NCBI RefSeq assembly: GCF_056712565.1
Contig: NZ_CM160072.1
DNA length: 64,000 bases
Strand: one strand, 5' to 3'
Numbering within the stretch: the first letter of the stretch is position 1; every line of letters begins with the position of its first letter. The notes beneath the pieces are model-generated. The model was not told the DNA's origin. It worked only from the letters and a program-made list of their open reading frames with translations, and did not search any database. Both the position numbers and the translations under genes were made by a program. This document shows positions 1 through 27,080 of the stretch, piece after piece.

Positions 1-395
1 GACCAAGCGTTGGTGCGATTGTTGCTAACTGATTACTGGTTGCGGTGGAACCCAATCCACCTGTTGCTTCCGCTGCCGCCAGACTCTGATAGCGAGCCTG
101 ACCTGCAAGGTCTTTATACTGCTGAGAGTTGTAATACTGGTTAAGTGCCTGACCTTGCCCTTCCAGAGACGATAAGTTCTCAAGGCTGCCGACATACTTC
201 CCAGCCAGAGGAGTAAACAGCTTCAGGTTGTTCATGATGGTGTTGAACTGCTGATTTTGCAGGTCTGCGGCATACTTCTGAGCTTCTGCTGCATACTTTG
301 CGCTTTTATCAGAACTGCCACCTTTCCCGCCTTTTTCAGGGTAATAAGGTTCCTCGCCGCGCAGTTTTCTGCCCAGCGTAAATGCATATAACATG
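1..395 (-). CDS. P22-like ejection/injection protein (gp7-like by position), N-terminal part. The gene runs off the window start.
   Basis: Minus-strand ORF beginning with ATG at 393..395 (MLYAFTLGRKLRGEEPYYPEKGGKGG...) and open to position 1. It lies downstream of the gp26-gp14 homologs, as in P22. Confidence 0.5.
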
Positions 396-396
396 G

Positions 397-852
397 CTAT
401 CTCCCGTGATTCAGGAAGTCGATTAGTTCTTCGCGTGTGGCGCTGTAAAACGTCACGTCATCCACGCCTTTGAAGTATTTCTTGATGGTTCCTACACGCT
501 TAAGGCCAATCATTGCGCAGTACATCTGCCCGTGGCGGAATTTGCGTGCAGCAAATGATGTGACGCACTGAACGGTGGTGTTGGTCAGAATGTATCGCCA
601 GAACGCCAGCCCTATTTCCTTGCTGAAGCCGCGAATCTCTGGCAGGTACATGGCGTGGCAATCGAATGTAAGCGGCTGAATCTCCTGATAGTAAACAATG
701 CCGCCAAACTGACCGTGCACGTTCACCTCAAAGTAACGGCAATCAGGTTTGTAGTCGTATCCATCACCGTTGTTGCTCCCGGCGATGATGTCAGGGTGAT
801 TTCCTACTGCTTCGATCAGGTCGATGTTTCGCGTTGGTTTGAATGTAATCAT
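397..852 (-). CDS. P22-like virion/ejection-associated protein (gp14-like by position)
   Basis: 151-aa ORF directly after the tail needle gene, in the P22 order 26-14-7. Confidence 0.45.
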   Translation of the reverse strand: MITFKPTRNIDLIEAVGNHPDIIAGSNNGDGYDYKPDCRYFEVNVHGQFGGIVYYQEIQPLTFDCHAMYLPEIRGFSKEIGLAFWRYILTNTTVQCVTSFAARKFRHGQMYCAMIGLKRVGTIKKYFKGVDDVTFYSATREELIDFLNHGR

Positions 853-1553
853 CAGTCAATCAGCCCATGTAATCTAAGTGCTGTTTCAAGCGCCAGAATA
901 CGCTGCCGCGCCTGCTCCAAACCTGTAGCGATAGCTGCGACTTCGGATTGTGTGTACGTAGTGCCGACCGTGTATGACTGGTTAGCGTTGAATGAGCCAA
1001 GAAGTGGTGTGCCTGTGGCCGCTGTCCATCCGGTCTGCCTTGCTCCAACGACCTGAATTCCATCAACTGAATATGATGTTTTTACATCCAGCGGTGACGC
1101 AAGAGACTGCGATTCTGTTACGGTTTTCGATACGTAATCACTCTTAATGTCAGATATATCGCTTTCTACGCCATCCAGTCTTTGGTCAACAGTGACCAGA
1201 TGCGCCTGAATATCGATAACCTCATCCAGCAAGTAATCAACATCGCTACGCAGTACAACTATCTTCCCTTCGGCGGTTGTTAACCTGACCTCAAGGAGAT
1301 TTATCGCTTTTGTGTTTGCGGTGATTCTTGCATCGTGGTCAGCCAGTTCGACATCCTGTTCATCGTTTTTCACCTGAGCATCGTAAGCGCCCTGACCAGC
1401 CTGATTTGCTTTCCCGGCAATTGCGCCGACATCAGCCCCCTGATTAATGACATACAGCAGGTAAGACTGGCTGAATATATTGCGTGGAAGGATTGATGTA
1501 TCGAGCCGCGTCGCCTGCACAATAACAGGGGTGTTGAGATTCGAATCAGCCAT
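852..1553 (-). CDS. Tail needle protein gp26 (P22-like)
   Basis: N-terminus [25 protein letters not shown]...YLLYV and C-terminus ...ALRLHGLID match the P22 gp26 pattern, with a heptad-rich coiled coil. The start overlaps the gp10 stop (ATGA). Confidence 0.9.
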
Positions 1554-2971
1554 TACTCGATCCTTATCTGGCAGCCAGACAGAGTGACAGGTGACTTCGT
1601 GATAACGCGCAATTTGAAGCCGACATTTTTCCTGATGCGCCCGACTCGCTTCCACAAAACGCGTTTGTCGTAAACAAACGGTTCATTCTGCTCAATCATC
1701 TGCTCACGACCGTAATTGATGCCGTCAGTGGTTGCAGAGAGAAAAAGGCGGTCGGCGTACTGCGCAACGCCAGTTGAAGATTCAACTTCAAGGTCGAAAA
1801 CTCTGGCGTTATCCGCTTTGAACAGAGGAGTAAACAGCAGATGCTCCTGTTGCTTGTCGTACTGGCTGCTGATGTCGAATTGCAATTTCCCGGTCACGGA
1901 CTCCAGCTTATCGCCGCACGTTATCTGATTGCCTTCGTAAATGAAGTCGATAGCGCGGTACACATCGTCATACAGACCTGTTTTCAGTACACACCATTGC
2001 GGAGCATTGGCGCTTGAAGATGCGTCGTATACGAGGACATGGCGCGGAAGATGGATAATCAGCAGCTCATGCGCATCAAATCGCAGAGACTCCATCACAC
2101 CATCAGCCAGTTCATCAGCAGTGTAGGAGCGAAGAATTTTCTCAATGCTCGCGCTGGCGATTGGTGACACCTGCCCGGAACCGATGATGTATACAGACGG
2201 CGCACCTGTTGCCGGATTGCTGATGAACGCATAGGAATCAGCGAATGGCGTTTTGCAATAGGTTCCGGCGATGCCTTTTTGCACCATCAGTGATGGCTGT
2301 GCGACATACAAAGCAGCACCAACGGTGGTTGCGCCAGTCAGGGAGAAATATTCAATAGTCGATGAACCAAAGCAGACGATGAAGTCTCGCCATGTCCCGA
2401 TACCGATGATGCCGTCCGGCTGCGATTCTGCGCGATATTGTGCACTGTATCGGTCAGGGTGCGATTCGTCTTCAAGGTCAGTGATAAACCATGAATCAGT
2501 TCCGTCTTTTGACCACGCATAACGCCCACGTAAGCGAGTAATGTCGCGAACTGAACCTAACTCATACTGCGTGAATCCACTGTCTGTAGGCCAGTTTGAG
2601 ACGGTTTTAACCGTGCCATCATAACGATACTCGACCAGTTGACCATTAACGCCTACAGCCTGTGATGTTCGACCATGCGCCATTGATACGCGACCACTTC
2701 CGGCGACGTCACCGACTTCGCTTTCTCCTTTGTACAGCTTGCCGCCACACACGCGATAAACAGCACTCTGCGCCATGTTGTACTCGACGCCGCGCGATAT
2801 ACCATTCACATCAGAACGTTTGGCAATGCCCGGGAATGAGCGAAGATATCCGCTGCTGTTCAGGATTTCTTTGGGCGTAGCCAACATATTCACTGGCAGA
2901 TAGTCGATATAGTCGGCGTTTCGAAAGTCTTTGCCGACACCTTTCATAAGCGGAAGTTGCTGAATCGGCAT
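1553..2971 (-). CDS. Tail hub/plug protein gp10
   Basis: 472 aa, the same length and position as P22 gp10. N-terminus [11 protein letters not shown]. Confidence 0.85.
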
Positions 2972-2980
2972 TTATTCACC

Positions 2981-3442
2981 TCACGTACTCGGATCATCTT
3001 TCTCGATGTAAAACCGATTCCACGTAAACGCGCTTTTGTTACCACTACCGCGAGGCATGTCATTTCGCCGCTCAAGTGGTGGTATTTTGGTTAAAGCGAT
3101 ACAGATTGTCTGATATGCACTGTCAGCAGCGGTAAGGAGAGCGTCTGACGGCTGAATGACGTTATCCATGCACACTTGCACAGCGAGTTTCAAAGCGACG
3201 CCATCATTTGCCCATGCAGGGATGCCTGAATCATCGTCAGGTAACGGCATGATGCCGTTTTCTGTATCAGCAAACTGATACCCAAGCTCGATACCTTTCG
3301 CCTGCCATGCTGCCATCATGTCTTCGAGGTCATTAATGGCATCTTCAATTGCCTGAGGGTCAGCATCTGTCAACGTGGCATTGGAATACAGCCCGGCTTT
3401 TCGTAAAGCCTTTAGAACGAGATCACCCTTCGTTTTCGCCAT
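2981..3442 (-). CDS. Head-tail adaptor / tail accessory factor gp4
   Basis: 153 aa (MAKTKGDLV...), in the P22 gp4 position between coat and gp10. Confidence 0.8.
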   Translation of the reverse strand: MAKTKGDLVLKALRKAGLYSNATLTDADPQAIEDAINDLEDMMAAWQAKGIELGYQFADTENGIMPLPDDDSGIPAWANDGVALKLAVQVCMDNVIQPSDALLTAADSAYQTICIALTKIPPLERRNDMPRGSGNKSAFTWNRFYIEKDDPST

Positions 3443-3611
3443 CTTCTTCCGCCTTAGCCACTTTTTGCTTCGTTGCGGTTTCTTCAGGAGTTTTTACCCA
3501 ACCTTTTTTCAGGTGAGATTTAACTTCTTCGTCATCAACAATGATGTAATCGACAGCAAACTGACCGCAGGTGATCATGTTGCCTGGCTTATAGAGCATT
3601 GTTCGTGCCAT
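3423..3611 (-). CDS. Small hypothetical protein between coat and gp4
   Basis: 62-aa ORF from an internal ATG (MARTMLYKPGN...) with a GGGAGA ribosome-binding site. Sf6-like small ORFs occupy the same position. Confidence 0.4.
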   Translation of the reverse strand: MARTMLYKPGNMITCGQFAVDYIIVDDEEVKSHLKKGWVKTPEETATKQKVAKAEEDGENEG

Positions 3612-3626
3612 TGTCTTCTCCCAATA

Positions 3627-3652
3627 AAAATGGGGCCGAAGCCCCACCAAAA
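3627..3652 (-). terminator. Intrinsic terminator immediately downstream of the coat gene
   Basis: Minus-strand hairpin GGGGCUUCGGCCCC followed by AUUUUUAUU. Confidence 0.6.
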
Positions 3653-26494: not shown

Positions 26495-26568
26495 TAATCC
26501 TCGCACTCGCGGGGATTTCTTTTATCTGAACTCGCTACGGCGGGTTTTGTTTTATGGAGATGATAAAT

Positions 26569-26736
26569 GCACTTCCGAGTCACAGGTGAATGGAATGGAG
26601 AGCCATTCAACAGAGTTATCGAAGCAGAGAACATCAACGACTGCTATGACCACTGGATGCTGTGGGCGCAGATAGCACATGCAGACGTAACTAATATTCG
26701 AATTGAAGAACTGAAAGAACACCAAGCCGCCTGATG
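26569..26736 (+). CDS. Small protein (55 aa, MHFRVTGEWNGEPFNRVIEAENINDCYDHW...), possibly YpdJ-related
   Basis: Ribosome-binding site GGAG at the right spacing, and the ORF ends at an intrinsic terminator. It competes with an overlapping 62-aa ORF in another frame. Confidence 0.45.
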
Positions 26737-26748
26737 GCGGTTTTTTAT
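26726..26748 (+). terminator. Intrinsic terminator (GCCGCCTGATGGCGG followed by TTTTTTATT)
   Basis: Seen directly. Confidence 0.7.
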
Positions 26749-26756
26749 TGCCTGAT

Positions 26757-26772
26757 TTGCAGGTTCGATTCC
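26757..26772. other. 16-nt fragment identical to the argW T-arm (TTGCAGGTTCGATTCC) upstream of torI
   Basis: Compared with the remembered tRNA-Arg(CCU) argW sequence ...TTGCAGGTTCGATTCCTGCAGGGGACACCA. Confidence 0.5.
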
Positions 26773-26791
26773 CTATTCGGAGATAGCACTC

Positions 26792-26992
26792 ATGCAACAC
26801 GAACTACAACCTGATTCACTGGTTGATTTGAAATTCATCATGGCCGATACTGGCTTCGGTAAAACCTTCATCTATGACCGGATTAAGTCCGGCGACCTGC
26901 CAAAAGCCAAAGTTATCCACGGGCGAGCAAGATGGTTATATCGTGACCATTGTGAATTCAAAAATAAGCTCTTAAGCCGCGCCAATGGGTAA
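26792..26992 (+). CDS. torI: TorI (excisionase / recombination directionality factor; inhibitor of TorR)
   Basis: 66 aa, MQHELQPDSLVDLKFIMADTGFGKTFIYDRIKSGDLPKAKVIHGRARWLYRDHCEF... Confidence 0.95.
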   Translation: MQHELQPDSLVDLKFIMADTGFGKTFIYDRIKSGDLPKAKVIHGRARWLYRDHCEFKNKLLSRANG

Positions 26993-27065
26993 AATAGCGG
27001 GTAAAATATTTCTCACATCTAAAAAACACCATTCCAATCAATCCCCTGCCGCCTCAAGTAGATGT

Positions 27066-27080
27066 CTGCAGGGGACACCA
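27066..27080. other. attR core (CTGCAGGGGACACCA, the 3' end of argW)
   Basis: 15-nt match to the argW 3' terminus about 70 bp after the torI stop. Host sequence and dsdC follow. Confidence 0.7.

Follow-up and report, generated by a model that had tools for sequence, protein, structure and literature searches.

A P22-like prophage of probable CUS-3 type between argW and dsdC in Escherichia coli

Prophage between argW and dsdC

The DNA analysed here is a 64,000-nucleotide (nt) window of contig NZ_CM160072.1 (assembly GCF_056712565.1). Positions 1-27081 of the window are occupied by a lambdoid, P22-like prophage of the genus Lederbergvirus, and make up the right ~27 kb, or about two thirds, of the element. 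The prophage adjoins dsdC (27180-28115, minus strand) at its right end. The open reading frame (ORF) map and domain searches showed an uninterrupted series of lambdoid/P22-like genes that extends from position 1 to ~27.08 kb. It is highly probable (roughly 0.93) that this segment represents the late and early regions and the excision side of a ~40.3-kb temperate phage of the CUS-3 type, which was put into the 3' end of the tRNA-Arg gene argW by an IntS-type tyrosine integrase. A first-pass annotation had reported a mosaic P22-like prophage at the argW/dsdC locus, where E. coli K-12 has KplE1. This report was upheld, and K-12 has only the intS/attL and torI/attR ends in common with the prophage. 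The prophage is thus real at its coordinates, but the element is already known and ordinary. The annotation had not recognized it as the published CUS-3 or 'APEC-1' prophage type (PMC2629481, PMC2951348).

The virion genes are all encoded on the minus strand, and their order follows that of the P22-like cluster, 3-2-1-8-5-4-10-26-14-7-20-16-(ant region)-9. Genes 3 to 7 run from position 9961 down to 2, and the rest are found in genomes identical to the window. The small terminase gene (9521-9961) is followed by the genes for the large terminase TerL (8109-9524, Pfam Terminase_3), the portal (5909-8107), the scaffold (4925-5818), and the coat protein (3653-4906). Next come gp4 (2981-3442), gp10 (1553-2971), the tail needle gp26 (852-1553), gp14 (397-852, Pfam DUF2824), and the ejection protein gp7 (2..394), which is cut by the window start and retains its N-terminal 131 codons. 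Pfam searches placed the coat protein in P22_CoatProtein (1.6e-75), the portal in P22_portal (2e-169), gp4 in P22_Tail-4 (7e-41), gp10 in Phage_stabilise (1e-299), and gp7 in P22_gp7 (5e-76). The first-pass annotation had claimed a full set of P22-type virion genes. The order and the families agree with this claim; the window itself holds genes 3 through 7 only, and genes 20 and 16 and the tailspike gene lie outside, as had been anticipated.

The closest phage is CUS-3 (CP000711), a K1-specific prophage of E. coli K1 RS218, with 99.4% identity over 91% of the prophage stretch. The alignment consists of five blocks: 1-15423 (99.7%, gapless), 15743-15967 (97.3%), 17255-22051 (98.1%), 22529-22647 (97.5%), and 22881-26772 (99.9%). 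All of the virion, lysis, Q, replication, and immunity proteins of CUS-3 that map to the window are full-length and 99-100% identical. Among the virion proteins, gp7, gp14, gp26, gp10, and gp4 are 100% identical to those of CUS-3, and the coat, scaffold, and portal proteins 99-100%. The similarity to other P22-like phages (P22, HK620, and Sf6) varies from gene to gene. The gp7 protein shares 91-96% identity with its counterparts in the three phages, and gp10 and gp14 share 93-99%. TerL is 98-100% identical to the HK620 and Sf6 proteins, and has no similarity to P22 gp2. The procapsid proteins are far more divergent. The coat protein is 29-30% identical to that of P22, and has no detectable similarity to those of HK620 and Sf6 at E 1e-3. 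The portal is 35% identical to that of P22 and 55-56% to those of HK620 and Sf6, the scaffold is 33% identical to the HK620 and Sf6 proteins, and gp4 is about 41-42% identical to all three counterparts. Judged by sequence, the procapsid genes (coat, scaffold, portal, and gp4) are of the CUS-3 type, set apart from the P22 and the Sf6/HK620 types. The assignment of the virion genes to P22 families was therefore correct in the first-pass annotation, and the divergence of the head genes from P22 had been missed. Casjens and Thuman-Commike (2011) reportedly defined a third type of P22-like virion genes, with CUS-3 as its prototype.

Nearly identical copies of the prophage were found in other genomes. 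ATCC 11775, APEC O1, S88, and the O1/O2:K1:H7 poultry strains match window 1-25000 at 100% or within a few bases, and at least 80% of this segment is carried by 69 complete E. coli genomes. For APEC O1 (NC_008563) the identity is essentially 100%, with a bit score slightly under that of a perfect match. The APEC O1 prophage has been counted among the P22-like prophages as 'APEC-1' (PMC2629481).

Right boundary and attachment site

The right end of the prophage carries torI (26792-26992, plus strand), which encodes the excisionase, or recombination directionality factor (RDF). Its product is 100% identical to K-12 TorI, HK620 HkaC, and Sf6 gp18, and TorI is known to act as an RDF (PMC2951348). 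The attR core, CTGCAGGGGACACCAT(T), is the argW 3' end and forms the right boundary (27066..27082, plus strand). CTGCAGGGGACACCAT is found exactly once in the window, at 27066-27081, and is the published 16-nt KplE1 core (PMC2951348). The same recombination module is found in KplE1, CUS-3, HK620, Sf6, and the prophages of APEC O1 and UTI89 (PMC2951348). CTGCAGGGGACACCAT is likewise the sequence annotated as the attP core in HK620 and Sf6; in both phages it separates xis (hkaC / gene 18) from int. A second copy of CTGCAGGGGACACCAT, the attL copy, is located within argW in the genomes identical to the window, so that the core stands at both ends of the prophage.

The boundary was located with a synthetic empty-site junction, in which argW through CTGCAGGGGACACCAT was joined to the window from 27082 onward. 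A single gapless match to this junction was found in 912 complete E. coli genomes. This makes the boundary exact and places torI within the prophage. The first-pass annotation had placed torI and an argW-derived attR core directly beside dsdC; this placement holds, and the core is one base longer (27066-27081) than the 27066-27080 given there. The proposed HK620/Sf6 layout, in which attP separates int from xis, is borne out as well: torI is at the attR end, intS is next to argW in the identical genomes, and the annotated attP cores agree. ARAGORN found no tRNA or tmRNA gene in the whole window, and Rfam at the gathering threshold found no RNA family there; attR therefore consists of tRNA fragments only.

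A different 16-mer, TTGCAGGTTCGATTCC, lies just upstream of torI (26757..26772, plus strand), and is identical to part of the argW T-arm. In the CUS-3 record CP000711, TTGCAGGTTCGATTCC forms both termini (1-16 and 40192-40207), and these two copies are marked as the attL/attR cores. Since it is delimited at TTGCAGGTTCGATTCC, the record omits torI and the true attR core, and the real CUS-3-type prophage is ~310 bp longer on the torI side than CP000711. A crossover at TTGCAGGTTCGATTCC was considered and rejected: the junction that it predicts was present in 0 of 5426 genomes, compared with the 912 genomes for CTGCAGGGGACACCAT. HK620 and Sf6 also have TTGCAGGTTCGATTCC in their free phage genomes, which shows that it belongs to the phage and does not mark an end of the prophage.

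The last 31 nt of argW thus occur in the prophage as two 16-mers, TTGCAGGTTCGATTCC and CTGCAGGGGACACCAT, which are 293 bp apart with torI between them. In argW itself the two are contiguous and overlap by one base. This split arrangement is kept in HK620, Sf6, K-12 KplE1, and the present prophage. TTGCAGGTTCGATTCC overlaps a putative cII-dependent 'phage integration' promoter (pI) annotated in HK620. By the junction counts, CTGCAGGGGACACCAT alone of the two 16-mers behaves as a crossover site. The split copy might be more than a fossil: an xis cassette might have been inserted into an ancestral attP of ~31 bp, or TTGCAGGTTCGATTCC might still function, for example within the pI promoter or as a second site of recombination or binding. 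Such a reading is regarded as quite unlikely. The splitting of the argW 3' end around torI across this phage group, and the consequent delimitation of the CUS-3 record at the wrong repeat, is the sole point of this analysis that is mildly new. When prophage ends or primers for attP PCR are taken from the CUS-3 record, CTGCAGGGGACACCAT should be used instead of TTGCAGGTTCGATTCC.

Left arm of the prophage

The 13.3 kb missing from the window was read in the window-identical genomes. From the virion genes outward, it contains genes 20 and 16, an ant/arc-type region, a 2946-nt tailspike gene, an acyltransferase gene, intS, and tRNA-Arg, followed by yfdC. APEC O1, whose sequence overlaps the window start exactly over 1182 bp, supplies this arm. 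Between argW and the tailspike, the arm shares 98.5-100% identity with CUS-3, in whose record these genes are annotated as integrase, neuO repeat region, and endosialidase tailspike. The APEC O1 copies of the tailspike gene and of neuO, which stands beside int, fall within this 98.5-100%. An integrase, a tailspike, and a surface-polysaccharide-modifying acetyltransferase had been predicted just past the window start, and all three are present in the identical genomes. The further expectation of gtr/oac O-antigen modification genes failed: according to the CUS-3 annotation and the sister genomes, the gene is neuO, for a K1 capsule O-acetyltransferase, and the tailspike is an endosialidase. Since the left arm of the identical genomes holds neuO, the conversion gene would acetylate the K1 capsule, not the O-antigen. 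neuO encodes a phase-variable K1 capsule O-acetyltransferase (PMC13001214, PMC9659370), and this prophage type is known for it as a lysogenic-conversion function.

Strains that are identical over window 1-25000 differ outside it. The APEC O1 left arm has no lesion. In ATCC 11775, the E. coli type strain, the insertion sequence (IS) ISEc12 (IS21 family, istA/istB) lies 24 nt inside the tailspike ORF, with a 5-bp overlap at the junctions; this copy of the prophage is probably unable to make infectious particles. The ISEc12 element spans locus coordinates 8403-10985. In Z0117EC0054, gene 16 is frameshifted (locus coordinates 2687-4700). The neuO ORF is annotated as 861, 336, and 924 nt in three strains, ATCC 11775 and Z0117EC0054 among them. 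These length differences are consistent with phase variation of the heptanucleotide repeat.

Lysis genes and late control

The lysis genes are located on the minus strand and consist of the holin gene S (12216-12539), the transglycosylase (endolysin) gene R (11756-12232), Rz (11322-11759), and Rz1, which is embedded in Rz (about 11378-11563). S and R are 99% and 98% identical to the lambda proteins, and R is unrelated to the P22 gp19 endolysin. Rz shares 57% identity with lambda Rz, 93% with P22 gp15, and 97% with the Sf6 protein. Because S and R are of the lambda type but Rz is of the P22/Sf6 type, the lysis cassette is a hybrid. The lambda-type cassette described in the first-pass annotation is thus correct for S and R and not for Rz/Rz1. 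A gene for a Rha-family regulator (10434..11045, minus strand; Pfam Phage_pRha and ORF11CD3) lies between the lysis and packaging genes, and its product is 100% identical to that of CUS-3.

The late antiterminator gene Q is at 13136..13654 (minus strand). Its product is 84.6% identical to phage 21 Q, 97.7% to ST64T gp23, and 97% to Sf6 gp59, and has no similarity to P22 gp23. The Q21 family (PF06530) and the Q82 family (PF06323) have no mutual sequence similarity (PMC9388147), and the test for a Q82-type protein was membership of the Pfam family. In the Pfam scan, PF06530 (1.6e-25) was the sole antiterminator family matched by Q; neither PF06323 nor PF03589 was found. On these sequence grounds, Q belongs to the Q21 family and not to Q82, and the phage-82-type Q of the first-pass annotation was discarded.

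The late promoter PR', the qut site, and the terminator tR' are also of the phage 21 type (13075..13158, minus strand), with TTGACA-18-CATAAT at 13158-13129. The enclosing segment, window 13200-13073, is 98% identical to a region of Sf6 that is annotated as 'nearly identical to phage 21 late promoter / qut / tR''. A ~295-bp segment (12778-13072) that separates tR' from the holin gene is unrelated to Sf6 and contains no tRNA gene; Sf6, like phage 21, has tRNA-Asn and tRNA-Thr there.

Early region

Upstream of Q, the nin region (13651..17254, minus strand) contains ninH, rusA, a ybcO-like gene, roi/KilAC, ninF, ninX, ninE, and ninB, and then small ORFs; RusA, YbcO, ANT, NinX, and NinB were matched in Pfam. 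A tR2-like terminator lies at 17257-17234. The nin segment 16386-17254, which is not in CUS-3, encodes two small proteins, of 63 and 68 aa, that are predicted to be membrane proteins, and includes a frameshifted ORF at 16574-16991 (phrog_343).

The replication module consists of the DnaB-type helicase gene P (17283-18659) and the initiator gene O (18656-19603), both on the minus strand, and both products are 99.8-100% identical to those of CUS-3. P shares 90% identity with the P22 gp12 helicase. O matches Rep_O; its C-terminal 126 aa are 58% identical to P22 gp18, a resemblance limited to that domain, and it has no similarity to lambda O. Next to O is cII (19901..20194, minus strand; Phage_CII), whose product is 98% identical to lambda CII and 57% to P22 C1. 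An oop-like terminator lies on the strand opposite cII (19925-19952).

The immunity region contains cro (20303-20488, minus strand; P22_Cro), which is 95% identical to P22 cro, and the repressor gene c2 (20569-21219, plus strand). The C2 protein has a helix-turn-helix (HTH) and an S24 domain, and is 92% identical to P22 C2 and 97.2% to the imm21 repressor. The OR/PR/PRM region between the two genes (20489-20568) has an OR with 96% nucleotide identity to P22. To the right of c2 are a terminator and OL/PL, where OL has 88% nucleotide identity to P22, and the immC region ends at 21345. A lambda-type cII, a P22-type immC, and an O/DnaB replication module had been named in the first-pass annotation; the lambda type of cII, the P22 type of c2 and cro, and the DnaB type of the helicase are confirmed.

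The early-left genes are on the plus strand. The N antiterminator gene (21741-22040) encodes a product 98% identical to CUS-3 N. It is followed by a 156-aa ORF (22049-22519; phrog_1636, function unknown) with no Pfam or PADLOC match, and by a possible cIII-like 56-aa ORF (22714-22884), which was picked out by eye from its translation and has no Pfam match. The segment 23141..26734 carries erf, an SSB-like gene, abc2, and then ea-type accessory ORFs, with Pfam matches to ERF, Anti-RecBCD_p2, and Ead_Ea22/DUF551 and 99.9% identity to CUS-3. For the remaining ORFs, PADLOC gave no match, NCBIfam gave no match (ten proteins), and Pfam and PHROGs returned only families of unknown function, so that none of these ORFs could be assigned to defence or anti-defence.

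The remainder of the window past dsdC (dsdXA, emrKY, evgAS, and yfdE through nupC) consists of ordinary core-chromosome genes in the same order as in K-12. Window 39001-64000 has no perfect match in the genome collection, and its best matches are other strains of the sequence type 95 (ST95) kind.

Discussion

The gene content, the alignment to CUS-3, and the attachment site suggest that the prophage is of the CUS-3 type, and several points weigh against this assignment. About 9% of the window part is substituted relative to CUS-3, namely the ninX and ninB alleles, the extra nin ORFs, and the ral-to-kil segment. The APEC O1 left arm departs from CUS-3 over ~6.7 kb, which takes in part of ant, the remainder of the ant region, gene 16, and the greater part of gene 20. 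With this arm included, the share of the whole prophage that can be aligned to CUS-3 is roughly 77% (sum of aligned blocks). The left 13.3 kb lies outside the window, and the left-arm data come from sister genomes only. No complete genome in the collection perfectly matches both window 1-25000 and window 39001-64000; the former alone has several perfect matches, ATCC 11775 among them, and the strain of origin is thus probably absent from the complete RefSeq genomes searched. In the window itself, two accessory ORFs are frameshifted (16574-16991 and 25929-26217), as judged from the RefSeq annotation flag and from translation. Over the whole genome, identity times coverage against CUS-3 falls below the 95% that would place the two phages in the same species. 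With ~77% of its length alignable, the prophage is therefore a close mosaic relative of CUS-3 and not CUS-3 itself.

A life cycle may be proposed from the biology of P22, lambda, KplE1, and CUS-3; the identity, right boundary, module composition, and protein conservation on which it builds were read directly. C2, a LexA-like S24 repressor with P22/21 operator specificity, would hold PR and PL shut until SOS-induced self-cleavage ends repression. Leftward transcription antiterminated by N would then proceed through erf and abc2 and lastly reach torI, the most distal gene of the early-left operon. TorI and IntS would excise the genome by recombination of the two CTGCAGGGGACACCAT cores, and O and the DnaB-type helicase would replicate it. 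The phage-21-type Q is predicted to load at its own PR'/qut and to activate the lysis genes S, R, and Rz/Rz1 as well as the virion genes. The DNA would be packaged by a headful mechanism with the Sf6-type terminase. Outside the window, the endosialidase tailspike would confer K1 specificity. The product of neuO, also outside the window and toggled by AAGACTC repeats, would acetylate the host capsule and lower the attack by other K1 phages (PMC13001214, PMC9659370).

The first-pass annotation had considered that the prophage might be inducible, but its ability to complete this cycle may be questioned. The prophage might be a defective, vertically inherited, 'domesticated' CUS-3-like element, which is retained in ST95 strains for neuO and no longer yields infectious phage. 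Such a reading disputes inducibility alone, and is compatible with a CUS-3-type identity. It would fit the base-for-base identity of a 25-kb stretch in human, poultry, swine, dog, and duck isolates, which is expected from clonal inheritance. CUS-3-like phages at the argW-dsdC site are decay-prone according to PMC9659370, and the ISEc12 insertion in the ATCC 11775 tailspike gene, the frameshift in gene 16 of Z0117EC0054, and the two frameshifted accessory ORFs in the window point in the same direction. However, the essential proteins encoded in the window are all full-length and 99-100% identical to those of CUS-3, a phage which forms plaques on the K1 strain EV36 (PMC10883804). The APEC O1 left arm is free of disruption, and the OR, OL, and PR'/qut regulatory sites are conserved. 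Loss of infectivity is plausible, though less likely than not.

The CUS-3-type reading places the prophage end at 27081. Alternatively, the prophage might end at 26772, at TTGCAGGTTCGATTCC, as in the CUS-3 record, and 26773-27081 might be a separate host remnant of the KplE1 type. CP000711 starts and ends with TTGCAGGTTCGATTCC and excludes torI, and the 16 bases of TTGCAGGTTCGATTCC match part of argW exactly. However, HK620 and Sf6 as free phages hold TTGCAGGTTCGATTCC, torI, and CTGCAGGGGACACCAT in the same order, with CTGCAGGGGACACCAT annotated as the attP core, and the empty sites in the 912 genomes fuse argW directly to the DNA after 27081. Together with the 0/5426 count for the other junction, these observations refute an end before torI, and such an end is regarded as very improbable. 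A tandem or composite of a P22-like late region and an unrelated lambdoid early region, which the different nearest relatives of the modules (lambda, P22, phage 21, Sf6, and HK620) might suggest, is scarcely credible, since the packaged phage CUS-3 has the same gene order and joints, the element has one att core pair and one integrase with no second att pair or integrase found inside it, and its total of ~40.3 kb suits a P22-like headful. Such module mosaicism is usual among lambdoid phages.

The prophage carries little weight as a discovery. A CUS-3-like phage that carries neuO has been described between argW and dsdC (PMC9659370), and neuO, hence CUS-3, was present in 88% of ST95 genomes (PMC13001214). 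CUS-3-like prophages at this locus are thus published neuO carriers in most ST95 extraintestinal pathogenic E. coli. The exact variant has been catalogued before as the APEC O1 prophage (PMC2629481). The identity of the prophage marks the window as DNA of an ST95-type K1 strain.

Relationship to known phages

The prophage shares modules with several known phages. The virion cluster is syntenic with that of P22, and gp7, gp10, and gp14 (91-93%), C2 (92%), Cro (95%), the helicase (90%), Abc2 (93%), and OR (96% nucleotide identity) are all similar. However, the coat protein (29-30%), portal (35%), and gp4 (41%) have diverged, and the terminase and endolysin are unrelated. P22 Q is of the lambda type and is unrelated to the 21-type Q of the prophage. 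In addition, int and xis are adjacent in P22, unlike in the prophage type, and P22 carries gtrABC in place of neuO.

KplE1 (CPS-53) of K-12 uses the same attachment site and 16-nt core, and shares intS and torI, with 97% nucleotide identity at both ends. However, it is a 10.2-kb remnant with no repressor, virion, or lysis genes, and has nothing in common with the prophage between intS and torI.

HK620 and Sf6 are P22-like phages that also integrate at argW, and their int/attP/xis module is the same. TorI (100%), TerL (98-100%), S and R (97-100%), and gp10 and gp14 (98-99%) are highly conserved, and Sf6 also shares the 21-type Q (97%) and the late control region. The two phages differ from the prophage in the coat protein (no similarity at E 1e-3), the portal (55-56%), the scaffold (33%), and the immunity and replication genes. 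Their tailspikes target the O-antigen, and the conversion gene is an O-antigen modification gene in HK620 and oac in Sf6, whereas it is neuO in the prophage type.

CUS-3 has the same integration site, gene order, and modules. The prophage differs in carrying other alleles at 15424-15742 (ninX) and 15968-17254 (ninB and the extra nin ORFs), and the ral-to-kil region is swapped for a shorter segment (22052-22528 and 22648-22880). The 'APEC-1' and 'UTI-1' prophages of APEC O1 and UTI89 (PMC2629481, PMC2951348) belong to the same prophage type, with differences of a few bases in the window part. Across the strains with an APEC-1-type prophage, the variation lies in the neuO repeat number and in occasional IS or frameshift lesions.

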